From: Candidatus Saccharimonadota bacterium
Lineage (GTDB): Bacteria; Patescibacteriota; Saccharimonadia; Saccharimonadales; Saccharimonadaceae
Direction of reading: 5' to 3'
Assembly (NCBI GenBank): GCA_001029695.1
Contig: CP011211.1
Span: forward strand, 300,001 to 332,000
Length of the DNA: 32,000 nucleotides
A program made the position numbers and the translations under genes. Below, piece by piece: positions 25 through 16,653 of this stretch (positions are counted from its first letter, which is position 1; every line of letters begins with the position of its first letter). The notes under the pieces were generated by a model. That model saw only the letters and a program-made list of their open reading frames with translations. It was not told the DNA's origin and did not search any database.

Positions 25-1251
25 ATGGATCCGGGATGGATCTTTTGCGATCGAGTCGTAGCGACAGACCTCACATCGGTTTTATCAGCAGACAATGGCT
101 TCTCTTTTAGTCGCGGAAACAAGTCTGTCATCGCTGCAAATCTCTACGCTATAAACCCAGCATATTATGGACTATGGGTTGCGGGATTTCTTACTTCGGA
201 TGGTCCCACTAGCCGAGGACCCGAAAATTTCATCATCTCAAATGTGAATATCATTAATGCAGGGATGGGTGGAGTTTTACTCGATAATGCACCTCGTAAC
301 GGCAAGATAACAGGACTTTTTATCAATGGAGTTAGTCGTGGTCCATCTGACGAGCCGGATGTAAACGGTGGAGTTGGTATTCGATTTGGCGGATACCCGA
401 GCGATAACCGCGTGTCGCCAAGTGAATACGCAAGTCGTATTGAGATTAGCGACTTCGTCCTAATAAACTGCGCAAAAGGCGGCGTGCAGCCCACCGGCAC
501 CCAGGATTGTGTCGTACGCAATGGCTTGATCGTCAACCCAGGATCAGAGTTTGACCATACGGGCACGACCACGATAGCCGACACCGATACAACTCAAAAC
601 TTCGGAATCGCAACAGCTGGAATAGCCGCAAGTACTGTCGTACGCTTTACGGCATCTGATATTCGTGTTGTCGATGATCGCTCAACGCCACGCGCCAATT
701 ACCCCGTCTATCTCGAAGGCACTACTGGAGTTGAATATACCGGTATCACCTCTCACGGCACTCGAAGAACCGCAGCAACTGACAGCGTTGCCGTAGAGCG
801 TCGCCTGCTCGGGTCGACAGTCATACAATCCATGCTGATCGTTCCGAGCGGTATTCGTTCAGGTGCCAATGCAGCAACAGGAACAATTCGCGGGTCGGAC
901 GTCAATGGCGCTGCAGGCTCACGTCGCCAAATTGGCCAAGCACTTACTGCAGGGACTGCCAGGTGGGACGTCGCAGCATCTGGTGATGTAGAGTCAGGTG
1001 CTAACGCCGGCTCTAATCTTGTTGTCGCTGGCTACTCCGACGCAGGTGTAAAACTTGCAGACTACCTGGTTATCCGACGTACGGATGGACGAGCCGCATT
1101 TGGAGGCGCTGTTCAATTGAAATCTTACACCACAGCAACACGCCCAACCCCGGCATCGGTTGGTGCGGGCGGGCAAATATATGATTCAACTCTTGGCTAT
1201 GCCATCACGTCCGACGGCACAAATTGGAAGTTTGGACCAACGGTAGTGTAA
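25..1251 (+). CDS. Right-handed beta-helix protein with a phage tail-fibre/tailspike-type C-terminus (possibly 5'-truncated by the window edge)
   Basis: 408-aa ORF; the frame stays open back to nt 1. It has beta-helix-like rungs (NVNIINAGMGGVLLDN, GLFINGVSRG, ISDFVLINCAKGG, VVRNGLIVNPG). The C-terminal SYTTATRPTPASVGAGGQIYDSTLGYAITSDGTNWKF is a motif I recognise from phage/prophage tail-fibre and pectate-lyase-fold tailspike proteins. By eye it is more GC-rich than the genes downstream. Confidence 0.7.
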   Translation: MDPGWIFCDRVVATDLTSVLSADNGFSFSRGNKSVIAANLYAINPAYYGLWVAGFLTSDGPTSRGPENFIISNVNIINAGMGGVLLDNAPRNGKITGLFINGVSRGPSDEPDVNGGVGIRFGGYPSDNRVSPSEYASRIEISDFVLINCAKGGVQPTGTQDCVVRNGLIVNPGSEFDHTGTTTIADTDTTQNFGIATAGIAASTVVRFTASDIRVVDDRSTPRANYPVYLEGTTGVEYTGITSHGTRRTAATDSVAVERRLLGSTVIQSMLIVPSGIRSGANAATGTIRGSDVNGAAGSRRQIGQALTAGTARWDVAASGDVESGANAGSNLVVAGYSDAGVKLADYLVIRRTDGRAAFGGAVQLKSYTTATRPTPASVGAGGQIYDSTLGYAITSDGTNWKFGPTVV

Positions 1252-1291: not shown

Positions 1292-2401
1292 TCATACTTT
1301 TTGGGTAGCCCATGTATTCAGCTCGCCAGCAATACGGCCGGTCAATTCGGCGAGTCGCTGCTCCATCTCTTCGAAGTCTAGCTGAAAAACTTGCTCAACC
1401 ATGCCATATAGCGGACGCCCTCGTGTCAGCCCAGTTAGATCAATGCGCGTATCTAGCCCGTAGTGCATCAGTGTATTTCTGAGTGGTTTTTTTGCAGGAT
1501 CAACAATCAAGATAGCGTCTGGATCAGCAAGTAATCCGTCAATATACTGATGAGATTGCAATGTCAAAACCCTCACTTTCTCATCCTTAAGGATACTTAG
1601 ACTGCGCAGTACCTGATAAACGGTAAGATAGCGAAGCTTAAATATAGTTTGCCGAGAGGCTTCGGAGGTATCGAGTCCAAGCAATTGATCGCAAGTGTTT
1701 ATAAGTCCTTGAAAGGTGCTTAGTAGCATATTGATCGTCGGAGTCATCTTACCATTAAACCCATTGCTATACTGGACCACCGAGCGAACATCTTGGTTGG
1801 CAATCCCAGATACATCCATCGCACTGACAAATGATTGAGCCGTCGGATCAGGTACCGCACCTAAATGACGGAAGTACCTTCCGTACTCCTGCGAGATATT
1901 TTTGAGTGTCTCGCCAGTACCGTCGAGAAACAGCTTCTCTGGTGGATGCCCAAGCGTAAAAGTCGTAGCAAACGTTGACGTTATGAGTTGATCTTCATAG
2001 CGCGTGAGGCCAAGATCAGCCTTCCATGCGGACGCAAACGGCAAACGCACAGGATCGATAAACGCTCGGCGGTGAGCAGGAGCAACTTTGTCTGCAAAGA
2101 AATCAAGCTGCCCAGACACGCCACGATGCGTATCCTCGAATAATTTAAGGCTATGCCGTGAACGCTCCAACAAATCAAGCATCCCCGGAGTGAAGCTCAC
2201 ACCTCCTGCAGTCGAAGGATCAAGAATTTTTAGTCGAGCATACGATTCATATGCAAAAAGCGATAGGTAGTTGAACATACAAAAGAGTGCTGAAGGAGCG
2301 AGCGTTTCCGCCTTAACTAAACTACTAATGAATCGACCAACAAAAGCGACGTCAACATCAATGGCATCTCGAACTAATATATCTCGCGTTAGATTGGGCA
2401 T
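1292..2401 (-). CDS. Hypothetical helical protein with a HEPN-like RNxxxH motif
   Basis: 369-aa ORF with no TM segment or signal peptide. The C-terminal third carries LRNTLMHYG (R-x4-H, the RNxxxH form typical of HEPN RNases). GGTGA lies just upstream of the ATG. The 53-nt gap to the upstream same-strand gene suggests an operon. Confidence 0.65.
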   Translation of the reverse strand: MPNLTRDILVRDAIDVDVAFVGRFISSLVKAETLAPSALFCMFNYLSLFAYESYARLKILDPSTAGGVSFTPGMLDLLERSRHSLKLFEDTHRGVSGQLDFFADKVAPAHRRAFIDPVRLPFASAWKADLGLTRYEDQLITSTFATTFTLGHPPEKLFLDGTGETLKNISQEYGRYFRHLGAVPDPTAQSFVSAMDVSGIANQDVRSVVQYSNGFNGKMTPTINMLLSTFQGLINTCDQLLGLDTSEASRQTIFKLRYLTVYQVLRSLSILKDEKVRVLTLQSHQYIDGLLADPDAILIVDPAKKPLRNTLMHYGLDTRIDLTGLTRGRPLYGMVEQVFQLDFEEMEQRLAELTGRIAGELNTWATQKV

Positions 2402-2454
2402 TCATCACCTTTCATAGTCAAACTTTCTAGCACTCGGAGGGCTCGTATCCACCT

Positions 2455-3390
2455 CTAAGATGCTCCTCGTCGCACCTTAGAGCGTCTTACTAAATATGCT
2501 TCATGCAGCCCATCAGCGCGGTCTAGCCTCTCTATTAGATCAGTAAAATGGCCTTCGTACAGAGCGACTGCCTCAGGTATGCATTCGAATACATACTCTT
2601 GAGCCACCAAGACAGCGAGTAACGCCATCGAAAAAAGAGGTTGTGGTCGCTCCGGTATGGGATCTGTATAGGGAAAGAAATTTCCGTCATTTCCGTCAAC
2701 GCGCTCTAGGTGATGTCTTTCAATATCATACCAAGAACCATGAATCATTCCTGACCCTATTCGATAAGCGGAATATGCAGCTGGACCTAAAAGCGCCAAT
2801 CTAGTCTGCGCATTTGGCCAATTAATTTTCTTTCGTGATGGTATCTCGTCCTCTGTAACGCCCGCTGACATAAATGTCTGTTGTACGGATCGCTCCATAC
2901 GCTCTTCTATGTCCCATTTCTCACCCCCGCGCAACGCTATCTGCTCTCGAATGTTCTTCATAAACTCTTTTTCACCAACAAGACTATCGAAAACATATGC
3001 ATCAAACCTCGATACATCAGTTTTATCCTGAAGTAAGTATTTGATAATTGATGCAGAATCAAGAAACTGTCGCGTAAGTTGCATCTGTTGGTCGCCTCCA
3101 TGCTCATCAGCAATTCCGGCAATGACGGCCCGCATTAGCTTCGACATACGTATAAGATGGCCGACCAAAATAGCCTCGTTCCGTGTAAACCCCTCTACAT
3201 GATCTTGATCAAGCGTACCAGCAACCGCCACAAGAAGCTGAGTACTTTCCCTTAGTAGTTCAAACGACACTCTAAGAAATTCATCCTCAGAGGTGGCTCG
3301 CGTTAGAGTATCGAAATCCACCTCATAGCGCCTGATACTATTCAAATCCAGTTCCTCATGCTCACTCATATGAGCTATATTATGAGGCAC
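2455..3390 (-). CDS. Hypothetical helical protein (DUF5677-like by memory) with an R-x6-H motif
   Basis: 311-aa maximal ORF starting at GTG 3390. ATG at 3369 (MSEHEELDL...) is the more likely start because a TTGGCA-17-CATAAT promoter sits at 3407-3379, making the mRNA nearly leaderless. It contains YRIGSGMIHGSWYD (R-x6-H) and has no TM segments. Confidence 0.65.
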   Translation of the reverse strand: MPHNIAHMSEHEELDLNSIRRYEVDFDTLTRATSEDEFLRVSFELLRESTQLLVAVAGTLDQDHVEGFTRNEAILVGHLIRMSKLMRAVIAGIADEHGGDQQMQLTRQFLDSASIIKYLLQDKTDVSRFDAYVFDSLVGEKEFMKNIREQIALRGGEKWDIEERMERSVQQTFMSAGVTEDEIPSRKKINWPNAQTRLALLGPAAYSAYRIGSGMIHGSWYDIERHHLERVDGNDGNFFPYTDPIPERPQPLFSMALLAVLVAQEYVFECIPEAVALYEGHFTDLIERLDRADGLHEAYLVRRSKVRRGAS

Positions 3391-3407
3391 TCAACGCCAT
3401 ATGCCAA
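3379..3407 (-). promoter_or_regulatory. Candidate sigma70-type promoter for the two-gene helical-protein operon
   Basis: On the minus strand: -35 TTGGCA (3407-3402), a 17-nt spacer, then -10 CATAAT (3384-3379). ATG 3369 lies about 9 nt downstream of the -10. Confidence 0.4.
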
Positions 3408-3536: not shown

Positions 3537-3684
3537 CCAAGTCCGAACTGATTTCGAGCAAAATGGCTGAGCCGTGCAGGCTCAGCCCCAACGCCTGCGG
3601 GCCCCACTAGAAAAACCCTTTGCCTATTTTTTCCGCCGGATTTCTTTTTTGAAACTGAAAAGGGTGTTTTCTAGTAGTTCGGAC
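3537..3684 (+). repeat. Structured non-coding repeat, copy A (inverted relative to copy B)
   Basis: Aligns by eye with the reverse complement of 6786-6954. The first 64 nt differ at 3 positions; overall there are about 10 substitutions plus 16-nt and 9-nt indels. It contains the hairpin GGCTGAGCC-GTGCA-GGCTCAGCC, the long-range helix CACTAGAAAA...TTTTCTAGT(A)G, and 9-nt termini GTCCGAACT / AGTTCGGAC that are mutually complementary. Confidence 0.85.
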
Positions 3685-3768: not shown

Positions 3769-4086
3769 CTAGAATCCCAACCAAGCGCCTTCGGTGTTGT
3801 CTGGCATATTCTTATAATCTATAAATTTCTTACAATCTTCCTCTTTTGCGCTACGCTCAAAGATGAAGTAATCACTCTTGATATCAGCAGTTTTGCCGCG
3901 CTGAACGCGCGCCTCACAAATGAGACTTTTCTCGTCTGTCTCTGCCTCTTTGCGTAAATCGCTCGCTTCTTTTTCTTTGTAATGTTCGGAAGTGTAATAA
4001 AATCCCGCATAACTGCCGCCCGCTAGCGCGGCAGTAATGAGCCCGACGAGTAAGTATTTGTTAATTGAAATAACATTTTTCATCAC
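3769..4086 (-). CDS. Small membrane-anchored/secreted hypothetical protein
   Basis: 105-aa ORF with an N-terminal hydrophobic segment (YLLVGLITAALAGG). Its start overlaps the stop of the upstream gene (ATGA at 4083-4086). Last gene of a five-gene cassette. Confidence 0.6.
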   Translation of the reverse strand: MMKNVISINKYLLVGLITAALAGGSYAGFYYTSEHYKEKEASDLRKEAETDEKSLICEARVQRGKTADIKSDYFIFERSAKEEDCKKFIDYKNMPDNTEGAWLGF

Positions 4087-4460
4087 TCATACCTCGGAAT
4101 AGGATTTTCTCGACAATCAAAATTGCCTTTTATACTGTCTTGATAGTATTCATATGGAGATGAGGTAGTTTTGAAACCACCCCATGCACTACTTGGCATA
4201 CCGCAATAGTGATAGTATGTGCCGCTCAACTTTATGACCATATACTCGTTGCTGCTGTCATACCACGCACCTTTAACAGTCGAGTCTGATTTATCGAGTG
4301 GCTCAAAATTACTTGCTGAAATATTCACTTTGTCATCACGGTATTTTACCGTTACATAACCAGAACTAGGCGACAGGAAAAGAAAATACAGAATCACACC
4401 GCCAATAAGCACTGCAAGTCCGATATACACCCATGAATAGTTTTCTTTGTGCTGTGTCAT
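4083..4460 (-). CDS. Membrane-anchored KTSC-domain protein
   Basis: 125-aa ORF with an N-terminal TM segment (WVYIGLAVLIGGVILYFLFL). The C-terminal GAWYDSSNEYMVIKLSGTYYHYCGMPSSAWGGFKTTSSPYEYYQDSIKGNF matches the KTSC-domain pattern from memory. ATGA overlaps occur at both ends. Confidence 0.65.
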   Translation of the reverse strand: MTQHKENYSWVYIGLAVLIGGVILYFLFLSPSSGYVTVKYRDDKVNISASNFEPLDKSDSTVKGAWYDSSNEYMVIKLSGTYYHYCGMPSSAWGGFKTTSSPYEYYQDSIKGNFDCRENPIPRYE

Positions 4461-5335
4461 TTCGTGAGAGTCCTTTTCACACGTTTAGATATAAGGAAAT
4501 ACGGCACCCAAATTAACACTCCTATGACACTCCTGCCTACGTCGCCACTATACTTACTCATCATTGCCTGTATCTCGGCATTTCCGGCAAGACCAGATGA
4601 ACTAAAAATATCTGACGCTGCCGCATAATCTATCATTCCGTATGCCGCTGCGAATATCAGCGTCGCAATTGCGAATGGCTTTGCTAATTTACGCTTACGG
4701 AATAACAGCATAAGCATAGTAATGAGAAGTACCACATATATGATAACAGCTGTATTCTCGAATGCTGTTAGGGCTTGTAGAGTATCACCAAGTCCATGCT
4801 CATATTCGTTGAGAGTTGATACGTCTGACGACGACATGAATCCGTCGGAGAAAAACCTAAATACCGTAATAAGTAACGCCAAAATCTGCCCTACAATGAA
4901 CAGTGCCAACCAGCCCTCGAGTCCAATCTTTTGGTCACGCCGTTGCTCTTTGGTTATCTTGTCGGGATTAGTTGTTTTTGAAAGATAAGAATCACCAAGT
5001 GATAATTGTTTTTTGAGCTTTTCTGCTTTGGCATACGGTTCGCCACGCATCTCTATCGCCTGATTGATAAAATCGAGTGCATCATCGTCATGACCATTAA
5101 AGTAATGGACTAACGCCTGTAACTCATAGAGTTTATATCTTGCTGTGCCAATTTCTTCACTGAATTGATATTTTTCAGCTAAAGAATCGAGTCGTTTTTG
5201 GACTAGAGCCAGTAATGCCTTGTCCTTCTCGCCAGAGGTTGCATCTTTGAGATTCGCCTCAACAACTTTAATTTGGTCTATGTACTTTTGACGATTTTCC
5301 GAATGAGGAAGTTGCATTATTCTAAATCTCCCCAT
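4457..5335 (-). CDS. Helical-repeat (TPR-like) N-domain fused to a DUF2569-like membrane domain
   Basis: 292-aa ORF. The alternative ATG at 5317 forms a TAATG stop/start overlap with the upstream gene. The N-terminal half is soluble and helical. The C-terminal half has about 4 TM helices beginning GLEGWLALFIVGQILALLITVF, reminiscent of DUF2569. Confidence 0.65.
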   Translation of the reverse strand: MGRFRIMQLPHSENRQKYIDQIKVVEANLKDATSGEKDKALLALVQKRLDSLAEKYQFSEEIGTARYKLYELQALVHYFNGHDDDALDFINQAIEMRGEPYAKAEKLKKQLSLGDSYLSKTTNPDKITKEQRRDQKIGLEGWLALFIVGQILALLITVFRFFSDGFMSSSDVSTLNEYEHGLGDTLQALTAFENTAVIIYVVLLITMLMLLFRKRKLAKPFAIATLIFAAAYGMIDYAAASDIFSSSGLAGNAEIQAMMSKYSGDVGRSVIGVLIWVPYFLISKRVKRTLTK

Positions 5336-5985
5336 GTTCGTTTAGTATCGTCTGTCTGCTCAATATCTATCACGTCGTTATGTCGGGTTGCGTGCTTCTC
5401 GGCACGAGTAAGCGCGTACGTGAATAGCAACTGTATCACCAGAGATATCACAAGAATCACGACAAGTACGGGAAATGCCTGACCAAGCGTCATGCCAAAG
5501 ATGCCGATACAAATCATCAGCGCGACGATACCAAGCGCAAGAAAGAATGTTGTCATACCTGTTGATGTGTTGTCTTGTTCTTTGGAAGCCATGTATTGCC
5601 ATGGTGCAAGCACTACGGCGTAAAGCCATAATAGGCTTGCCCAAAGTGGTGCAGATTGAGAGCTCAGGGCAATATCTGCAATGTAATATGTCGATACGGC
5701 GATGAGACCATAAGTGTATGCGATACCCAGTAAGCCAAAGATGAAAAACAGCACATATTTGCGCTTTTCTGCAAAAGCCGCCGCAGGCGCTGCAAAAAGC
5801 AGACTAGGCATGAGGAGTAAACCAATAATCATCGCGCCAAACATCATGTAGAGTAAGCCGCCTATGAATAATGACCACTCGCCAGCAACCATGAGCCAAA
5901 TGCCACCGACAATACCACCCAGAACATTGAGCAAAAGAATAGGTACACTGAGGGTTGTAGTAAGTCCGCTAAAAAACCGTTCCAT
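5317..5985 (-). CDS. Polytopic membrane protein, unknown function
   Basis: 222-aa ORF with about 6 hydrophobic helices and a charged C-terminal tail. Tightly packed in the cassette. Confidence 0.65.
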   Translation of the reverse strand: MERFFSGLTTTLSVPILLLNVLGGIVGGIWLMVAGEWSLFIGGLLYMMFGAMIIGLLLMPSLLFAAPAAAFAEKRKYVLFFIFGLLGIAYTYGLIAVSTYYIADIALSSQSAPLWASLLWLYAVVLAPWQYMASKEQDNTSTGMTTFFLALGIVALMICIGIFGMTLGQAFPVLVVILVISLVIQLLFTYALTRAEKHATRHNDVIDIEQTDDTKRTWGDLE

Positions 5986-5991
5986 CGTATT

Positions 5992-6531
5992 CTATGATCC
6001 CAAACAGTACTCTGAACCGTTTTCTAGCAGTACCGTAATTGCATAATTCCGAGCAGACGACACACCGTCGCAATTCGTACCAGTCTTGAACACGGCTGTC
6101 TCGGCTGTCGGCTCGCCCCCACCAGAAACAGACGTAACTTGTGCAAGACTAGAAGTTGAAAGGTCGCTTGCGCTCGGTAGTTGTCCACGATTTTCTGTCA
6201 TGAATGATGTAACATCTGTCGTGAGAACACTAACATCATTTTTGCGTGCTGTGTCGCGCTGGCTTTGCTGCAAGCTAGGAAACGCCGCCTGCACAACCCA
6301 GACGATGAGCAAACTCAAAACAACGCCGACACTACCCGTTACAATTCCTGCAATCGCTTTTTTGCGCCCTCGTTTCTTAACCGATGCTGCTCCAAAAATG
6401 ATAGCCAGAGCGCCAAGCACAATACCGATATACCAAACAAGGCATGTGATAATTGCTAAAATGCCAAGAACTAGCGACGCAATCGCAAGACCCTGACTCT
6501 CTGTTTGTTCTGTTTTGTGTGATTCTGACAT
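5992..6531 (-). CDS. DUF4190-type double-TM anchor fused to a pilin-like ectodomain
   Basis: 179-aa ORF. The N-terminus GLAIASLVLGILAII...GAASVKKRGRKKAIAGIVTG is typical of DUF4190. After the second TM segment, QQSQRDTARKNDVSVLTTDVTSFMTENRGQLP resembles the alpha1-C region of type IV pilin/pseudopilin domains, but there is no class III signal peptide. GGAGG lies 7 nt upstream of the ATG. Confidence 0.7.
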   Translation of the reverse strand: MSESHKTEQTESQGLAIASLVLGILAIITCLVWYIGIVLGALAIIFGAASVKKRGRKKAIAGIVTGSVGVVLSLLIVWVVQAAFPSLQQSQRDTARKNDVSVLTTDVTSFMTENRGQLPSASDLSTSSLAQVTSVSGGGEPTAETAVFKTGTNCDGVSSARNYAITVLLENGSEYCLGS

Positions 6532-6785: not shown

Positions 6786-6954
6786 CCACCACCAGAAAAC
6801 ACCTTTTTCAGTTTCAAAAAAGAAATTCGGCGGGGAGAAATAAAAAAATAGGCAAAGAGTTTTTCTGGTGGGGTGAGCGGGCGCGTGAGCCCGCAGGCGT
6901 TGGGGCTGAGCATGCATGGCTCAGCCATTTCGCTCGAAATCAGTTCGGACTTGG
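6786..6954 (-). repeat. Structured non-coding repeat, copy B (directly follows tRNA-Ala; the shared sequence starts in its CCA)
   Basis: The reverse complement aligns with 3537-3684. It carries the same hairpin (GGCTGAGC...GCTCAGCC) and the helix CCACCAGAAAA...TTTTCTGGTGG. A 16-nt insertion creates an extra hairpin, GCGGGC-TCACGC-GCCCGC. Confidence 0.85.
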
Positions 6955-7028
6955 TGGAGCATACCGGATTCGAACCGGTCGCCTCTTCGCTGCCAGCGAA
7001 GCGCTCTAGCCAAATGAGCTAATGCCCC
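6952..7028 (-). tRNA. tRNA-Ala (anticodon GGC), CCA encoded
   Basis: The reverse complement GGGGCATTAGCTCATTTGGCTAGAGCGCTTCGCTGGCAGCGAAGAGGCGACCGGTTCGAATCCGGTATGCTCCACCA folds as a cloverleaf. The anticodon loop is CTGGCAG, and the G3:U70 Ala identity pair is present. Confidence 0.95.
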
Positions 7029-10876: not shown

Positions 10877-11458
10877 CTAACTATCGGCATTTAATAGCTC
10901 TGCAACAGAACGCGAAACAAGATCTTCAATCGGCCGACATGCAGCTAGTCGCTGCCGCACCTGAGTGGAGCTAACATCCAGAGGATCTACATTTAGCCGT
11001 ACGGCACGTCTTCCTAGTTGCAAGGCAGGATAACCTGGACGTTCAACAATAGCCATCGACAGGTTTTCAAGCATCCAAGCCCCATCCTCCCATTGCGGCA
11101 TCGTCTGTAAAGAGTCAGACCCAAACACCCATGTAAACTGACGATCAGGATATGCTTCACCTAGTTGCCGTACTGTATCAATTGTCTCCGTAGGCTTAAT
11201 CCTATCCAGCTCCTGTTCTTCGACGCGCAGCAAGGTTTCACCCGTCGTGACTATATCGAGACATAAGGCAGCACATAATTGTAGCCTCCGCTCTCGATTA
11301 GCATCTATGCGCTTGTCGCGACGCTCACCACTAGGAAGAAGCCAAACATCAGCGCCGCTCTGCCCAGCCCTATCGGCACACGCCTGTAGAATCGTTTGGT
11401 GTGCGCGTGTAGGTGGGTTAAACGCCCCTCCGTAAATGATTGTCTCTTTTTGTTTCAT
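10877..11458 (-). CDS. nadD: Nicotinate/nicotinamide mononucleotide adenylyltransferase
   Basis: 193 aa with GGAFNPPTRAH (nucleotidyltransferase HxGH-type motif) and the C-terminal VSSTQVRQ (ISSTxxR motif). AAGGAGGGTG lies upstream. Confidence 0.85.
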   Translation of the reverse strand: MKQKETIIYGGAFNPPTRAHQTILQACADRAGQSGADVWLLPSGERRDKRIDANRERRLQLCAALCLDIVTTGETLLRVEEQELDRIKPTETIDTVRQLGEAYPDRQFTWVFGSDSLQTMPQWEDGAWMLENLSMAIVERPGYPALQLGRRAVRLNVDPLDVSSTQVRQRLAACRPIEDLVSRSVAELLNADS

Positions 11459-11473
11459 ACACCCTCCTTATAT

Positions 11474-11493
11474 AAGTGTACATATAACACTAT
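11474..11493. promoter_or_regulatory. Candidate NrtR operator, site 1 (nadD / nrtR divergent region)
   Basis: AAGTGTACATATAACACTAT is a 5-7-5 palindrome (AGTGT-n7-ACACT). Its reverse complement ATAGTGTTATATGTACACTT nearly equals site 2 at 13220-13239. Confidence 0.5.
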
Positions 11494-11594
11494 CTATATA
11501 TATTACTTAATATATCAAACATAGATAGATAATCAAGCTCCTTCTCGTTGGGACCTCGACATACTGTCAATCAACAGAGAAAACAAGTATACTT

Positions 11595-12278
11595 ATGACT
11601 ATGAAATACACAGGTAGCTATGTCGCCCCCACCCTCACTGTAGATGCAGTATTATTTCAACTGATCAATAACGAACTCAATGTTATCTTGATAGAGCGAC
11701 CCAATGACCCCTTCAAGGGACTTTGGGCGCTCCCAGGTGGATACAATCCCGTCGGCGAAACAACCCACGATGCACTGCAACGTATCGTACAAGAAAAAGC
11801 TGGGATAAACATAGACAAAGACCTTAGCTATATAGAGCAACTCTACACCTTCGATACCGTCGCGCGTGATCCTCGTGGACATGCGGTTTCCGTTACCTAC
11901 ATGGGCTGCGGACGAAATATCGAATGGACAAAAAGCGAAGCGCATACCGCCTCCTTTGCGGTCAGCAGCCTCCCTAAGACCGCCTATGACCATACAGACA
12001 TCATTCGCTATGCCCATGAGCGACTTATCGCAAAGCTCTCCTACACAAACGCAATCTACGCATTCCTTCCCCAGAAATTTACCCTCACAGAATTGCAAAG
12101 TGCCTATGAAGCAATCCTTGTTCGACCACTCGACAAGCGTAATTTCCGTAAAAAGTTCCTAGGCCTTAACTTAATCCGCGAAACTGATGAAATGAAGCGT
12201 GAAGGTGCACATAGGCCTGCACGTCTTTACATGTTCAACTCAAGCACACTTGAGACACTCGACCGAAGTTTTGAGTAA
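11595..12278 (+). CDS. nrtR: NrtR-family regulator (Nudix domain + C-terminal winged helix)
   Basis: 227 aa. The N-terminal Nudix fold has a degenerate box (GGYNPVGETTHDALQRIVQEKAGI). The C-terminal FTLTELQSAYEAILVRPLDKRNFRKKFLGLNLIRET...HRPARLYMF is the NrtR DNA-binding signature as I remember it. Confidence 0.8.
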   Translation: MTMKYTGSYVAPTLTVDAVLFQLINNELNVILIERPNDPFKGLWALPGGYNPVGETTHDALQRIVQEKAGINIDKDLSYIEQLYTFDTVARDPRGHAVSVTYMGCGRNIEWTKSEAHTASFAVSSLPKTAYDHTDIIRYAHERLIAKLSYTNAIYAFLPQKFTLTELQSAYEAILVRPLDKRNFRKKFLGLNLIRETDEMKREGAHRPARLYMFNSSTLETLDRSFE

Positions 12279-12293
12279 AGCGCCACCATCCCC

Positions 12294-13115
12294 CTATATA
12301 CCAAGTAAGGGCGGCGCAAATTTCACCTGACGAAGCAACTCTTCACCCGTAAACCGTTGACGAGCTGGCAGCTCCACCCAGTTACCTCCATCCGGCGACT
12401 CATGAATTGCATCGGGGTAAATCATGCGTCTCCAGTGAAGCTTATCTCGTATATCATCTGGATCATCCGGATTGACTCGCGAGTAATGAATAATACTACA
12501 GTTCCTGATTACGTACGTAGGGTCTTGGTCAAGCGCCTCCCACTGCTCAGGAAGCATCCTCTCGATTCCATAGCGAGCAACATTTATAAAATCCCCGTGC
12601 GATACCACGATAACTCGTTCACCTGATTTTTCACGATGTAGCGTACCCTGAAAGTCACGGAAACGACCATAGACATCTGGCATACTTTCACCACCATCAA
12701 ACCGTACATACCACGGAGTTGCCGCATGTAGCTTACTTGTCAGCGGAAACTGCGATCGCTGTTCAGCGCGAGGAACAATACCGTAAACACCCCAGCTCCT
12801 CTCTACGACACGATCATCGATCGTCCATTCTCCGCATAATTTACCGCCGACATATGCCGCAGTTTCACGTGTTCTTAAAAATGGCGATATATACCTACCC
12901 TGAAATGATTCTGCACCGCCAAGATTGCTATCGATCCACAGCTTAGCTGCTTTTGCTTGAGCAATACCTTTAGATGAAAGGCGCTGCTGCCAATCTGGGC
13001 GGTCATTGATAGAAGCAGCCGCATCATGCGGTTGATCCGTCTTGTCTGCTTTTTGTATGATGTTCGCTTCCGACTGTCCATGACGGACAAATACAATATC
13101 ATTTGGCATTGGCAT
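12294..13115 (-). CDS. Histidine phosphatase family protein (phosphoglycerate-mutase-like)
   Basis: IVFVRHGQSEAN (RHG motif) and VVSHGDF (second catalytic His). The ORF extends to TTG 13157, but ATG 13115 (MPMPNDIVFVRHG) with AAAGGTG upstream places the RHG motif at its usual N-terminal position. Confidence 0.8.
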   Translation of the reverse strand: MPMPNDIVFVRHGQSEANIIQKADKTDQPHDAAASINDRPDWQQRLSSKGIAQAKAAKLWIDSNLGGAESFQGRYISPFLRTRETAAYVGGKLCGEWTIDDRVVERSWGVYGIVPRAEQRSQFPLTSKLHAATPWYVRFDGGESMPDVYGRFRDFQGTLHREKSGERVIVVSHGDFINVARYGIERMLPEQWEALDQDPTYVIRNCSIIHYSRVNPDDPDDIRDKLHWRRMIYPDAIHESPDGGNWVELPARQRFTGEELLRQVKFAPPLLGI

Positions 13116-13180
13116 GGTACAAAAAACACCTTTCTTTATATCAAAAGTATATGACAATCACACATACAAGTCAATTAGTG

Positions 13181-13239
13181 TTGACACGACAATAACTCTT
13201 CGTTTATCATAAATATAGTTAGTGTTATACATACACTTA
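13181..13239 (+). promoter_or_regulatory. pncA-pncB promoter with candidate NrtR operator, site 2
   Basis: TTGACA (13181-13186), an 18-nt spacer, then TATCAT (13205-13210). It is followed by TAGTGTTATACATACACTTA (13220-13239), of the form AGTGT-n7-ACACT, over the expected transcription start. Confidence 0.5.
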
Positions 13240-13259
13240 CAGAAAAGGAGTACGCCACT

Positions 13260-13958
13260 ATGGCAAAAAACTTTATCGACTCTAAAGCATTCATTATTGT
13301 AGATGCACAGTGCGGCTTCATGCCCGCAAACGAAAATGAAACCTCACGCAAACCTGGCTTCGGTGAGCTTGGGGTCACCGGTGGTGATCGTATCATCCCC
13401 AACATAAATACTCTCACTCGTCTACTCGGTGAACGTGGCGTCTTTATTGCGACAACCCAAGACTGGCATCCACTCGAAACAGCCCACTTTTCTAAAACAC
13501 CTAACTTTATCAATACCTGGCCAGTTCATTGCGTCGCTAACACACCAGGTGCAGCGCTACACCCGGACCTTGATGTAGCCGAAGACCCAATGCTTGCTGA
13601 GCGTTTCATAAAAGGAGATACTGCATGCACATCCCCGGAGAACGACACTAGTTACAGTGGTGCTCTGGCCTATAATCCAACTTCACTCACCACCCTTCCT
13701 GACCGACTCAGAGAGCGACAACATACAGACATATACGTCGCTGGACTCGCACTAGGGGATGGCGATCACCATAAACTCTGCGTTGACTCAACAGCCTATG
13801 ACTTACAAACACAAGGATTTAACGTCTCACTAATAACAGACGCTACTGAGGCAGTTGTTCCCGAAAATCGAGCAGCATGTTTTCGCAATCTAGGAAGGCA
13901 AGGCATCCGACTTATGACTACAGCACAAGTCATCGAAGAAATTGAGAGTCAGTCATGA
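13260..13958 (+). CDS. pncA: Nicotinamidase (isochorismatase family)
   Basis: 232 aa with IIVDAQCGF, TQDWHP, WPVHCV and LCVDST, which are the catalytic Asp/Lys/Cys and metal-site context of PncA. AAGGAG lies upstream. Confidence 0.85.
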   Translation: MAKNFIDSKAFIIVDAQCGFMPANENETSRKPGFGELGVTGGDRIIPNINTLTRLLGERGVFIATTQDWHPLETAHFSKTPNFINTWPVHCVANTPGAALHPDLDVAEDPMLAERFIKGDTACTSPENDTSYSGALAYNPTSLTTLPDRLRERQHTDIYVAGLALGDGDHHKLCVDSTAYDLQTQGFNVSLITDATEAVVPENRAACFRNLGRQGIRLMTTAQVIEEIESQS

Positions 13959-15208
13959 AAAATTACGAACCAAATCTTAGCCGTGGGCTCGATTATTACA
14001 AACTAACGATGGGGGATGTTGCCCTTGAAAAACATCCAGACGCCGAAGTTACTTTTACGCTAAAGAACCGTAATACTATGCAGCCCCTGAGTGAATACGT
14101 ATCGCCTAGCGCGCTTCAACACCGTCTCGACGCTATTCGCGACCGAGGCTTTAGCTCAGAAGAAGTTGCCTATTATGCAGGTCTTAAGGCGCAAAATAAC
14201 GAAGCACGATTCACTCCAGAATATCTAGAACATATAGCTAATCTACAGCTCCCCAAGGTTACCGTCGAGCTATCGTCCGACTCCGAAGAGTTAGCACTCG
14301 AAACTACCGGCTCGTGGCCTGATGTAAGTCTATGGGAAACGGTCGCTATGAGCGAGATCAATGAAGAGTATTACTCAAACCTCATGCAATCTCATGGACT
14401 CGATATCTCTGATCTCTACGTAGAAGGAGACAGACGCCTCGATACAAAGATTGAGAAACTTCTTTCTCATCCGAATATTACATTCGCAGACTTTGGGACT
14501 AGGCGTCGGTTTAGCGCAGACTGGCACGAGCATGTTATCGAGCGTCTTGCAGCAGAACTTCCGGAGAACTTCATCGGCACAAGTAACCCATGGTTTGCCT
14601 ACAAATACAACCTTACCCCAATCGGAACATTCGCTCATGAATTGCCTATGGTGTACGCAGGGCTCGAAGATGCCAAAGGGAATAATCCTTTAGACGGACA
14701 CGCCTCTATGTTTAAAGACTGGGAAGAACACTACCAGGGTGACCTATCTATTGCCCTTACCGATACATTCGGTAGCGAGTTTTTCTTCACCGAATTCACG
14801 CCAGAGCAAGCGCGCAAATGGAAAGGTCTTCGCCATGATTCCGGGGACCCATTTGAATTTGGCGAGCATGCGATTGATTATTATAAGCAAAGTAACGTTG
14901 ACCCTGCGACGAAAACAATTGTTTTTAGCGACGGCCTCGATATAGACAAAATCATCGCTCTCGCTGAACACTTCAGCGGTCGTATCAACACTACCTTTGG
15001 ATGGGGAACATCTCTCATGAACGATCTAGGGCTGCCTGCCAACAACTTCGTCATGAAAGCGACAAAAGTTAATAACGTCGATACCGTAAAGCTCAGTGAC
15101 GACACAGGCAAACACACAGGACCGGACGATAAGGTTCACGAATATCAATCCCGCGTAGCCTTAGCTATTGCAAAAGTCTGCCAAAAACAGTTACTAATAG
15201 CGAGATAA
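13955..15208 (+). CDS. pncB: Nicotinate phosphoribosyltransferase
   Basis: 417 aa with DFGTRRR, GTFAHE, LTDTFG and GLRHDSGDP motifs. ATGA overlap with pncA. Confidence 0.9.
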   Translation: MKNYEPNLSRGLDYYKLTMGDVALEKHPDAEVTFTLKNRNTMQPLSEYVSPSALQHRLDAIRDRGFSSEEVAYYAGLKAQNNEARFTPEYLEHIANLQLPKVTVELSSDSEELALETTGSWPDVSLWETVAMSEINEEYYSNLMQSHGLDISDLYVEGDRRLDTKIEKLLSHPNITFADFGTRRRFSADWHEHVIERLAAELPENFIGTSNPWFAYKYNLTPIGTFAHELPMVYAGLEDAKGNNPLDGHASMFKDWEEHYQGDLSIALTDTFGSEFFFTEFTPEQARKWKGLRHDSGDPFEFGEHAIDYYKQSNVDPATKTIVFSDGLDIDKIIALAEHFSGRINTTFGWGTSLMNDLGLPANNFVMKATKVNNVDTVKLSDDTGKHTGPDDKVHEYQSRVALAIAKVCQKQLLIAR

Positions 15209-15216
15209 AATATTTT

Positions 15217-16653
15217 ATGACCGAGTTTTCTTCACCTAATAACCAGGAGCTCTACCCTCTTAAGCCACTTCACCCGTGGCTAGAGTGTCCAGAGCGCTAT
15301 GCCCCAACTCTTGATCGACAGGAGCGAGAATTATGGTACGACGGACCCAATTATACCGCAGACGCTGTCATCATGACCCGTGACGCGGATCCTCTTATTC
15401 TTCTCATCACACGCCGTGACGGATCGTATGCCGTACCTGGCGGATTCATTGATGCCAGCGAATCGACAGAGCGAGCTGCCATCCGTGAGGCCTATGAGGA
15501 AACCTCCGTCAATTTAGCCGATACAAAGTCGTCTCTAATATTTTCAGGGGTCGTCGATGACCCGCGGGCGACAAAACATGCATGGATAGAAACTACGGCA
15601 TTTTTATTTTCAGTCGATAAACCGCTCCCATCCAAGGCGGGAGATGACGCCCTCGATACAACCTGGTGCAGATACAGTCAATTACCAGGAGAGCTATACG
15701 GATCTCACAGAGAGATTATCAACGCCGCCTATGAACGACACTTCCATCTTCACACCCTAAAGTTTCCAGAAACAGCAGTAGTAGAAAAAGCATATGGCGG
15801 CCACATGCTCTATCACCGATTTTTCGTAAAACACAGCTCATCAAGCCCACAATATTTCGTAAAGTCGCATGACAAGATACTTTTCTCCGACCAAAGTAGA
15901 GCAAATCATTCCATACAGTATCTAGAAAAAGAAGCGTTAGTATACGAATACCTGCGCTCAAGCTCGTATCTATTTATCCCTACTATCTCACAATCACATG
16001 CGCCCCATACGATCACAATGGACGCATACCATCCAGATGAAAACTGGTATTGGCGTGCACCAAAAAACGCTGCATACCACAATTACGTAGAAGATATCTT
16101 CTCAGCCTTTTATCAGCTAGAGACTATTGCTCCTCCGACAGATTTTCATGAAAATATTGAACCGACACACATACTGCTAGCTACTGAAGGTTGGGGCGCG
16201 ATACATGATACTACCGATACAGTATATACGTCTCTATTCGCATATCATCATGAGATTCCTAGTGCAGATACTCTATACAGCAACCTAACGAACCTTAGAG
16301 ATTACGCACTACACCACCCTCCGCAGCCGCCCTCCGTGCTTGCTCATCATGATGCAAGACAAGCAAATATAGCATGGCATCCTAGTCATGGAGCGCGACT
16401 GGTCGATTGGAGCTGGACTGGCCTCGCCACTCCAAAAAGCGACTCAACAAACTTTCTTATCGATCTTCATAAGCACGGCCATGACGTAAGTCGCTACCTT
16501 GACGATCATTTCGACCCCATACACGCATTGACACTGATCGGGTTTTGGATCGAGCATAGCACATGGCCCGTCGGAAATGGCGACAATGACGTACGGAAGC
16601 AACAATTCCTATCTGCCCTTAGCGCATATGAGCTTTTTACAAAAACTATATAA
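15217..16653 (+). CDS. Nudix hydrolase fused to an aminoglycoside-phosphotransferase-fold kinase domain
   Basis: 478 aa. The N-terminus has an intact Nudix box, GGFIDASESTERAAIREAYEETSV. The C-terminus has the Brenner motif HHDARQAN (HxDxxxxN) followed by LVDWSW (IDWE-like metal-binding Asp), as in APH/choline-kinase-fold kinases. Last gene of the pncA-pncB operon. Confidence 0.75.
   Translation: MTEFSSPNNQELYPLKPLHPWLECPERYAPTLDRQERELWYDGPNYTADAVIMTRDADPLILLITRRDGSYAVPGGFIDASESTERAAIREAYEETSVNLADTKSSLIFSGVVDDPRATKHAWIETTAFLFSVDKPLPSKAGDDALDTTWCRYSQLPGELYGSHREIINAAYERHFHLHTLKFPETAVVEKAYGGHMLYHRFFVKHSSSSPQYFVKSHDKILFSDQSRANHSIQYLEKEALVYEYLRSSSYLFIPTISQSHAPHTITMDAYHPDENWYWRAPKNAAYHNYVEDIFSAFYQLETIAPPTDFHENIEPTHILLATEGWGAIHDTTDTVYTSLFAYHHEIPSADTLYSNLTNLRDYALHHPPQPPSVLAHHDARQANIAWHPSHGARLVDWSWTGLATPKSDSTNFLIDLHKHGHDVSRYLDDHFDPIHALTLIGFWIEHSTWPVGNGDNDVRKQQFLSALSAYELFTKTI

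Follow-up and report, generated by a model that had tools for sequence, protein, structure and literature searches.

A DUF5677 gene and a gene of an unannotated family carrying an R-N-x3-H motif lie side by side near a tRNA-Ala gene in a Saccharibacteria chromosome

Organization of the locus

The window, a 32,000-nt stretch of contig CP011211.1 (positions 300,001 to 332,000) of a Candidatus Saccharimonadota bacterium, contains two adjacent genes on the reverse strand, here called A and B. Gene B (bp 1292–2401) encodes a 369-aa protein of an unannotated family, predominantly alpha-helical but including a small beta element. Gene A, located upstream of it, encodes a member of DUF5677 (PF18928) that is all-alpha except for one small beta hairpin. 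Both reading frames of the original prediction were present, 369 aa at bp 1292–2401 and 311 aa at bp 2455–3390, the latter being the mechanical reading frame of gene A from a GTG at bp 3390. Because this GTG falls within a promoter-like site, homologs align from M8, and gene callers choose a 304-aa product in other contigs (L059, L063, L066 and L102–L105), the start of gene A is most likely the ATG at bp 3369, which gives a gene of bp 2455–3369 and a product of 304 aa.

The promoter-like site, TTGGCA-17-CATAAT (bp 3379–3407, reverse strand), was found as originally described and matches 10 of 12 consensus positions; with its −10 element ending 10 nt upstream of the ATG, it would give gene A a transcript that has little or no leader. 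Sites of this kind were no more frequent in the region than in shuffled sequences (three found, 4.3 expected), and support for this one comes from its position and from its being unchanged in contig L059, in which the sequence farther upstream differs. The spacer between genes A and B is 53 nt long, carries a Shine-Dalgarno-like AAGGTGA (bp 2405–2411, reverse strand) 3 nt ahead of the gene B ATG, and contains no promoter-like or terminator-like site. A terminator-like hairpin (bp 3565–3587, reverse strand; 9-bp stem with 7 GC pairs and a T-rich tail), situated upstream of the promoter, divides the pair from a preceding five-gene cassette. The proposal of a two-gene unit with its own promoter was thus upheld by co-directionality, a single promoter-like site and a short, terminator-free spacer, and judging by these features genes A and B form a real operon that is probably co-transcribed from that site.

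Chromosomal setting of the gene pair

Convergent with gene B lies a gene for a phage-type tail spike, of which the C-terminal 408 aa (of 689 aa) are encoded in the window (bp 25–1251, forward strand). It matched phrog_29706 (E = 4e-168), which bears out the tail-fibre-like neighbor of the original prediction but not a phage setting, since this phage-derived gene stands alone, with gene B on one side of it and housekeeping genes on the other; DUF805 and Mur ligase genes flank it. This lone protein shares 67–70% identity with tail spikes of Rhodococcus phages. A tblastn search of both proteins against 50,697 phage genomes and scans of IMG/VR, for which alignments of closer relatives were used, returned nothing, and neither did a megablast search in which the DNA of the region was compared with phages and E. 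coli genomes. A prophage or moron origin of the pair was ruled out by the flanks of the tail spike gene and by the absence of A and B from phage genomes and IMG/VR.

On the other side, the five-gene cassette (bp 3769–6531, reverse strand; a 105-aa protein, KTSC, DUF2569, a 222-aa protein and DUF4190, mostly small membrane proteins) lies between the pair and a tRNA-Ala (GGC) gene (bp 6952–7028, reverse strand), which borders the region about 3.6 kb from the pair. The cassette is missing from sister contig L059 and present in L063 and L102–L105; L066 was dropped as a further cassette-less variant owing to a run of N at a scaffold junction. In sister strains (L064, L065, L067, L068, L103 and L104), a conjugative element encoding a serine recombinase, ArdA, a relaxase, TrwB and a Shedu protein (SduA_C) is inserted at the tRNA-Ala, indicating that this tRNA gene marks an integration hotspot. 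The exact gene A protein (100% identical) was found on 14 contigs and was followed by gene B in every case, regardless of the presence of the element or of the cassette. The pair thus resembles tRNA-side defense islands in its closeness to a hotspot, but differs from them in that it is not cargo of the element and is fixed in all strains seen. No recognizable island boundaries and no att-like direct repeats were found around the pair, and a recent transfer from a high-GC donor was ruled out because GC and GC3 of the region are those of the host. The A-B pair is fixed in the chromosome of one Saccharibacteria (TM7) species, beside a tRNA-Ala hotspot.

Gene A is a member of DUF5677

A Pfam search placed gene A in DUF5677 (E = 1.1e-13; 52.1 bits against a cut-off of 27.1; model positions 2–162 of 166), and all 28 close homologs scored above the gathering threshold of this family, which was the only one returned when the 28 were scanned at E≤10. 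The original prediction had likened "the larger ORF upstream" to DUF5677; the family was right, although the upstream gene is the smaller of the two. Gene A has the length class and the invariant residues of the family, and nothing sets it apart. We know of no function assigned to DUF5677.

The peptides quoted for the two proteins were both found, that of gene A being RIGSGMIHG (bp 2737–2763, reverse strand), which had been read as an R-x6-H motif. Across 23 DUF5677 relatives, the Ser, His and Gly of this peptide are invariant (23/23 each), whereas the Arg is retained in 18 and gives way to G, I, K, M or Q in the other five; R74, R100, S206, H210, H289 and E290 are invariant. The conserved signature of DUF5677 in these alignments is accordingly R, R, S-x3-H-G and H-E, and R-x6-H appears to be a feature of a subfamily only. 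The Arg of R-x4-6-H is thus not conserved in the family of gene A. In HEPN motifs the residue following the Arg is usually polar (N, D or H); that of gene A is not, unlike the N in the RN of gene B.

The vicinity of serine recombinases has been found to be enriched for DUF5677 (preprint PMC12632615). When a DUF5677 gene was assayed by itself in Enterococcus faecalis, it did not figure among the candidates conferring phage defense.

Gene B family and its relation to HEPN proteins

The family of gene B forms about 683 clusters at 50% identity, with lengths almost always of 360–400 aa; gene B itself had no match in Pfam, NCBIfam, PHROG or PADLOC. Its proposed HEPN-like peptide, RNTLMHY (residues 308–314; bp 1460–1480, reverse strand), is an R-N-x3-H-Y motif that was strongly conserved in 51 diverse members sharing 20–40% identity: R308, H313 and Y314 in 51/51 and N309 in 49/51. 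The conservation of the R and H residues therefore holds in full for gene B, and in gene A for the His but not for the Arg. Such conservation is what counts here, since 92% of shuffled gene A and 76% of shuffled gene B sequences contain one or more R-x4-6-H matches, which makes the motif alone uninformative, as the original prediction had itself cautioned; each protein has two matches, one of which is conserved. A second conserved motif of gene B, RSRHSLKLFED (residues 80–90; bp 2132–2164, reverse strand), contains R82 (51/51), K86 (50/51) and the less conserved H83 (29/51). Together with D17, E52, D129 and D204, R82 and K86 make up the invariant or near-invariant residues outside R-N-x3-H-Y, suggesting an active site, or a regulation, of greater complexity than that of a minimal HEPN domain; so many invariant acidic residues would be unusual for a metal-independent HEPN RNase.

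The AlphaFold models of the two proteins were of high confidence (pLDDT 92 and 94) and all-alpha, in agreement with the helical nature originally assigned to both. Structure and profile comparisons gave no HEPN fold or profile match for either protein: 1) a whole-protein Foldseek search of the gene B model against PDB gave nothing at E≤1e-3, the 50 best-ranked entries including no HEPN protein, and the best HEPN lead in BFVD was a 145-aa "HEPN domain-containing protein" at rank 17 with a weak match (E = 5.8, TM = 0.41), 2) the gene A model matched only generic long-helix proteins in PDB (TM<0.25), 3) Pfam HEPN families had no match among the 51 gene B family members at E≤10, nor was any found in the scan of the 28 gene A homologs, 4) profiles of both families gave only chance matches (E>0.4) to PDB sequences, and 5) PADLOC-DB v2 gave no match for A or B at E≤1. 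Alignment with hhalign of A against B, of the N-terminal against the C-terminal half of B, and of each half against the DUF5677 core gave probabilities below 1% throughout, by which both a Cas13-like internal duplication of gene B and a common origin of A and B were rejected.

Gene B nevertheless resembles the stand-alone Abi-type HEPN RNases (Abi_2/AbiD-AbiF, AbiV, AbiU2, ApeA and HepT/DUF86) in being all-alpha, in its Abi-like size of about 370 aa, in having a conserved R-N-x3-H near the C-terminus, and in occurring alone in variable or defense islands, once directly beside an ApeA gene. The HepT motif is R-x4-H-x-Y, of which the Tyr beside the His in gene B is reminiscent, but it lies at +1 from the His instead of +2. 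Gene B differs from these RNases by the lack of a Pfam HEPN profile match and of a HEPN structure among its PDB Foldseek matches, by a large N-terminal region with extra invariant D, E, R and K residues, and by the position of its motif, which in the model closes a short helix (residues 302–313) on the C-terminal side, whereas in canonical HEPN domains, which are four-helix up-down bundles, the motif stands at the start of a long helix, the last of the core. Taken together, sequence features make gene B a plausible new HEPN-like family and a candidate single-gene Abi-type effector.

Conservation of the gene pair

Outside this Saccharibacteria lineage, no DUF5677 gene was detected near gene B at any of 84 loci (48 genome loci, 7 from context look-ups and 29 metagenome loci), which were searched with two HMMs at thresholds as loose as E≤1–10, and no gene B homolog was present at any of six loci of gene A homologs. 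Gene B had no constant neighbor across loci; all-against-all clustering of the neighbors showed only local synteny among close Streptomyces relatives. The A-B pair was met only in near-identical strains. Since each gene is solitary elsewhere, A and B are most likely two separate accessory genes.

The original prediction was that the two products could be two different HEPN proteins forming an obligate heterodimer with a composite R/H site, as the two HEPN domains of Cas13 do. The adjacency and shared direction of the genes behind one promoter-like site, the helical nature of both proteins, and an R..H motif in each that is invariant among close homologs are consistent with this idea. Co-localization of homologs had been set beforehand as a test of it, and none was seen at the 84 gene B and six gene A loci. 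The Arg of gene A is replaced in five of 23 DUF5677 relatives and is not followed by the polar residue typical of HEPN motifs, A and B share no profile similarity, neither has a HEPN profile or fold match, and a match to R-x4-6-H is expected by chance. A heterodimeric nuclease made of A and B is thus very improbable. The likeness to Cas13 is confined to the idea of two R..H motifs meeting, as gene B has no internal duplication. That to HEPN-MNT toxin-antitoxin systems is likewise confined to the idea of a HEPN gene with a neighboring partner; here the partner is not conserved, and in the Pfam search gene A was a DUF5677 protein with no nucleotidyltransferase domain.

A looser connection would be that formerly independent genes A and B were joined in one operon in this lineage, with A being, for example, a sensor, regulator or antidote of effector B. 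The single promoter-like site, the 53-nt spacer with a Shine-Dalgarno-like sequence for B and no intervening terminator point in this direction, as does the fact that the promoter, A and B travel together while the sequence upstream varies, every strain variant seen having kept the pair and all 14 contigs encoding an identical gene A protein. Moreover, in L058 only 2 nt separate a gene A homolog from the TIR effector gene it follows, suggesting that DUF5677 proteins can partner with different effectors. However, both families are solitary elsewhere, so that neither gene requires the other, and as the strains are nearly identical, retention of the pair may simply reflect recent common ancestry. 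We therefore consider such a lineage-specific module unlikely, and somewhat favor the view that A and B are evolutionarily independent accessory genes lying side by side, not a conserved two-component system.

Neighborhoods of homologs and possible functions

In all other genomes sampled, mainly those of Actinobacteria, homologs of either gene were solitary and usually shared variable islands with genes for transposases, restriction-modification, ApeA, TIR, CBASS or ATPase defense; the closest named homologs of both genes are from Rhodococcus and Nocardia. Gene B homologs were found beside ApeA/HEPN_Apea, beside an N6_N4 methyltransferase and a resolvase, and beside a type I restriction-modification system, while gene A homologs were found immediately behind a TIR_2 gene in the vicinity of CBASS and ubiquitin-like systems, beside AAA_15/21, and beside a McrB-like AAA_5 gene and a methyltransferase. 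In a census of gene B neighbors, DDE transposases led, with scattered PADLOC candidates. The association with defense genes is a qualitative one, drawn from about eight annotated contexts and a census with no baseline. The accessory setting originally suggested for the pair agrees with these observations, the neighbors being accessory or defense-like both at the homolog loci and at the present locus.

These surroundings bear on a further possibility, namely that neither protein is a HEPN RNase and that they perhaps do not serve defense at all, the R..H residues being part of a larger, possibly metal-dependent site and the two genes forming, with the tail spike, maybe a host-interaction block acquired from the gene pool of Rhodococcus. 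Both A and B have numerous invariant acidic and basic residues outside the motif, no method gave a HEPN match, the adjoining tail spike has about 70% identity to its counterparts in Rhodococcus phages, and the DUF5677 gene assayed gave no reported phage defense. On the other hand, the absolutely conserved R and H of R-N-x3-H in gene B fit the HEPN signature R-x4-6-H, the neighbors elsewhere are predominantly defense or mobile genes, and by eye neither protein has an N-terminal signal-peptide-like hydrophobic stretch, so that neither resembles a delivered effector. On balance this reading seems doubtful to us.

If A and B are independent accessory genes, gene B may act as a stand-alone conflict or abortive-infection-type effector. 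By analogy with HEPN proteins, R308-N-x3-H313-Y314 would serve as the active site, with the Arg and the His as general acid/base in metal-independent RNA cleavage, probably after homo-oligomerization and an infection trigger. Gene A would be a separate helical protein that need not interact with B. Both were probably taken from the gene pool of the actinobacterial (Rhodococcus/Nocardia-like) host of the epibiont.

Significance

A heterodimeric HEPN nuclease, if true, would be a new architecture, but the evidence is not in its favor. What the locus offers is the gene B family, which with about 683 clusters, no Pfam or NCBIfam model, an invariant HEPN-type motif and a solitary occurrence in actinobacterial islands is a reasonable candidate for a new family of single-gene Abi-type effectors. 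For DUF5677, the true conserved signature can now be given, and the company of the family is seen to consist of TIR, ATPase and restriction-type genes.

Saccharibacteria are tiny parasitic epibionts with genomes of about 1 Mb; to our knowledge, little is known of their defense repertoire and of their gene exchange with hosts. It is conceivable, though quite improbable in our estimation, that A, B and the tail spike are a block captured by this obligate epibiont from a Rhodococcus-like host and its phages, in which the spike would be re-used for recognition or digestion of the host envelope, A and B would make up a newly assembled defense module directed at host-derived phages able to adsorb to the epibiont as well, and B would be the founder of a new family of HEPN-like effectors comprising about 680 clusters. 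The three genes form a fixed block, and each of them points to Rhodococcus/Nocardia and their phages; the locus thereby bears on gene exchange between epibiont and host and hints at the host of this uncultured lineage.

Gene organization and transcription signals

Gene A was delimited mechanically as an ORF at 2455..3390 (minus strand) encoding 311 aa from a GTG start, and gene B, encoding 369 aa, occupies 1292..2401 on the same strand. Sequence matching located a promoter-like site (TTGGCA-17-CATAAT) at 3407..3379 (-). Because the GTG at 3390 falls within this site, alignments of gene A homologs begin at Met8 and gene callers assigned 304 aa to gene A on other contigs, the start was placed at the ATG at 3369, from which gene A residues are numbered here. 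This ATG is 10 nt past the -10 hexamer and lacks a Shine-Dalgarno sequence, which fits the near-leaderless promoter proposed originally; the transcript would be leaderless or near-leaderless. The spacer between A and B is 53 nt long, with AAGGTGA 3 nt 5′ of the gene B ATG and no terminator found in it, and a GC-rich hairpin with a T tail (3587..3565, minus strand) closes the preceding transcription unit. About 110 bp 5′ of the gene A ATG are identical in the same-species contig L059, whose sequence further upstream differs. The reading of A and B as an operon is based on this layout and upstream identity, not on the frequency of promoter-like sites, which showed no excess in the region (3 found vs. 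4.3 expected from shuffles).

Genes A and B are not a conserved pair

The original prediction was that A and B encode two HEPN-like proteins (HEPN being an RNase superfamily with an R-x4-6-H motif) forming a heterodimeric nuclease. The survey of gene B homologs covered 48 loci in species-representative genomes, nearly all of them actinobacterial, 7 from context look-ups and 29 from metagenomes. With narrow and broad HMMs at E<=1-10 and flanks up to 5-8 kb, no DUF5677 gene was found near gene B at any of these 84 loci. Gene B was likewise missing from all 6 gene A homolog loci. Neighbour clustering revealed no universal partner of gene B, only local synteny among close relatives. The proposed two-protein architecture is not supported; the two genes are not a conserved pair, and their independence is a direct observation, as is their genomic context. 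In this species, the exact gene A protein was present on 14 contigs, with gene B following it in all. An obligate heterodimer is highly improbable, and a functional module of A and B specific to this lineage is unlikely. We consider it somewhat the more probable reading that A and B, accessory genes independent of each other, lie side by side and are transcribed together in this species; A would be a DUF5677 protein and B a stand-alone HEPN-like effector.

Gene A belongs to DUF5677

The suspicion that the upstream ORF is related to DUF5677 was borne out: with a score of 52 bits (cut-off 27), gene A is a bona fide, ordinary member of that family. The string Y-R-x2-S-x3-H-G is invariant among close gene A homologs. 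When more distant DUF5677 proteins were added, 5 of the 23 sequences had G, I, K, M or Q in place of the Arg of R-x6-H, so that R-x6-H is not the family signature; R74, R100, S206, H210, G211 and E290 were still invariant. A preprint describes enrichment of DUF5677 near serine recombinases, and a DUF5677 ORF tested there is absent from those reported to protect E. faecalis against six phages (PMC12632615).

Gene B family and relationship to HEPN

The R..H peptides quoted originally for A and for B are both present. Each protein has two matches to R-x4-6-H, but shuffled sequences contain one or more such matches in 92% of cases for A and 76% for B; the match alone is therefore uninformative, and conservation is what counts. 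A word-indexed search gave 74 clusters of gene B relatives, and an exhaustive profile search extended the family to 683 clusters at 50% identity, nearly all of 360-400 aa and matching end to end. Pfam, NCBIfam, PHROGs and PADLOC all lack a model for this sizeable family, and gene B had no match in any of them. Among 51 members of 20-40% identity, D17, R82, D129, R308, H313 and Y314 are invariant and E52, K86, D204, N235 and N309 nearly so, and R-N-x3-H-Y is therefore the strongest family signature.

AlphaFold2 models of A (pLDDT 94.3, pTM 0.90) and B (pLDDT 92.3, pTM 0.92) were both essentially all-alpha with small beta elements. Foldseek returned no match to the PDB at E<=1e-3 for either; the best matches (TM<0.25, rmsd above 15 A) were GPCRs, outer-membrane channels and F-BAR domains, and no HEPN entry was among the 50 PDB matches listed. 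Gene B had no significant match in BFVD, where its only compact local match, a 145-aa phage "HEPN domain-containing protein" (E 5.8, TM 0.41, rmsd 6.4 A), is a hint, not evidence. The family profiles of A and B found nothing among PDB sequences, and when each sequence of the two alignments was compared with Pfam at E<=10, no HEPN family recurred. With hhalign, A showed no similarity to B, the halves of gene B showed none to each other, and neither half resembled the DUF5677 core. Gene B thus carries the motif and lacks profile similarity. In view of these fold and profile comparisons, HEPN membership is unproven for B and is not supported for A: of the proposal that both are HEPN-like, the invariant R-N-x3-H-Y of B stands, while the Arg of A is replaceable and neither protein had a HEPN profile match or a significant Foldseek match. 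HEPN-like chemistry of gene B, suggested by its motif, is less likely than not because of the many additional invariant acidic residues and the missing fold or profile support. That A and B are both non-HEPN enzymes, possibly outside defence, accords with the null searches and less well with the invariant motif of B; we regard it as unlikely.

Genomic neighbourhoods of homologs

One gene B homolog adjoins an ApeA (HEPN_Apea), pentapeptide and DUF6308 group, another an N6_N4 methyltransferase, a resolvase and YagJ, and a third a type I R-M system. In a Terracidiphilus contig (L052:4534-8193), two unannotated same-strand genes encoding 464 aa and 330 aa flank a gene B homolog at distances of 73 and 100 nt, and this group comes immediately behind a type I R-M system; the three genes may be a unit confined to that lineage. 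At L058:5100-6906, 2 nt separate a TIR_2 gene from the start of a gene A homolog (53% identity), possibly a TIR-DUF5677 operon; the island around them also holds ubiquitin-like conjugation genes (Multi_ubiq, Prok-E2, ThiF/JAB) and CBASS (CD-NTase, Cap15). Other gene A homologs follow AAA_15/AAA_21 ATPase genes or lie near a McrB-like AAA_5 gene and a methyltransferase, and the xenogeneic silencer Lsr2 is present at two gene A homolog loci.

A bulk tally covering 145 neighbours of gene B is headed by DDE transposases, NUDIX and HTH proteins, with PADLOC candidates scattered among them. Neither family was found in 50,697 phage genomes or in IMG/VR scans, and one Streptomyces megaplasmid carries gene B (a single occurrence). 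The GC content around gene B in Streptomyces and relatives (L001-L048) is 0.59-0.70, which looks low for Streptomyces, whose genomes have a GC of about 0.72; together with the transposase neighbours, it is consistent with horizontally acquired islands. Across these contexts, the association of A and B homologs with defence or mobile islands is consistent, though qualitative.

A fixed locus beside a tRNA-Ala integration hotspot

Housekeeping proteins encoded in the window group with proteins labelled Candidatus Saccharibacteria. The local gene order is DUF308, tRNA-Ala (6952-7028, minus strand), a five-gene cassette, A, B, a convergent 689-aa tail spike homolog, DUF805, Mur ligase, LeuRS and NusB. 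The locus contains no prophage. The cassette (3769-6531, minus strand), encoding small, mostly membrane proteins (105 aa, KTSC, DUF2569, 222 aa and DUF4190), occurs both in the window and in most strains. L059 has in its place unrelated sequence of about 0.9 kb, with the breakpoint in a hairpin about 85 nt 5′ of the pair's -35 hexamer.

The tRNA-Ala is an insertion site in sister strains. In other same-species samples (L064, L065, L067, L068, L103 and L104) it carries a conjugative or mobilisable element with a serine recombinase, ImmA/XRE, ArdA, an N6_N4 methyltransferase, a relaxase and a TrwB-type coupling protein at one end, and HATPase_c_3 and Shedu (SduA_C) as cargo at the other, beyond which the same cassette, A, B and tail spike follow. 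Since gene B follows gene A in strains with or without the element and with or without the cassette, the A-B pair is fixed chromosomal DNA beside an integration hotspot. The pair matches the host in GC and GC3 and is therefore not a recent arrival. The element-bearing loci have a GC of 0.53 vs. 0.46 for the host. On the conserved side of the tRNA, window positions 10877-16653 hold an NAD salvage cluster (CTP_transf_like of NadD type, NrtR, His_Phos_1, isochorismatase/PncA, NAPRTase and a NUDIX protein).

A lone tail spike gene and a possible Rhodococcus-like host

The tail spike gene, partly included in the window (25-1251, plus strand) and complete in the same-species contig L063 (16462-18531, minus strand), stands alone, with gene B on one side and the genes for DUF805 and Mur ligase on the other. 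Its 689-aa product has 67-70% identity over 88-91% of its length to the tail spikes of the Rhodococcus erythropolis phages Trina, Grayson and NiceHouse, and its GC (0.52) exceeds that of the host (0.46). The best named homologs are from Rhodococcus for gene B and Nocardia for gene A. Mycolata such as Gordonia are parasitised by environmental Saccharibacteria (PMC11880426), and a Saccharibacterium can be bound and infected by a prophage of its host (PMC13578794). Possibly the tail spike is a receptor-binding or depolymerase protein captured from a phage of the host; its similarity hints that the epibiont's host is Rhodococcus-like. A receptor-binding protein of a host phage, standing alone in the chromosome of an epibiont, may exceed the original finding in interest.
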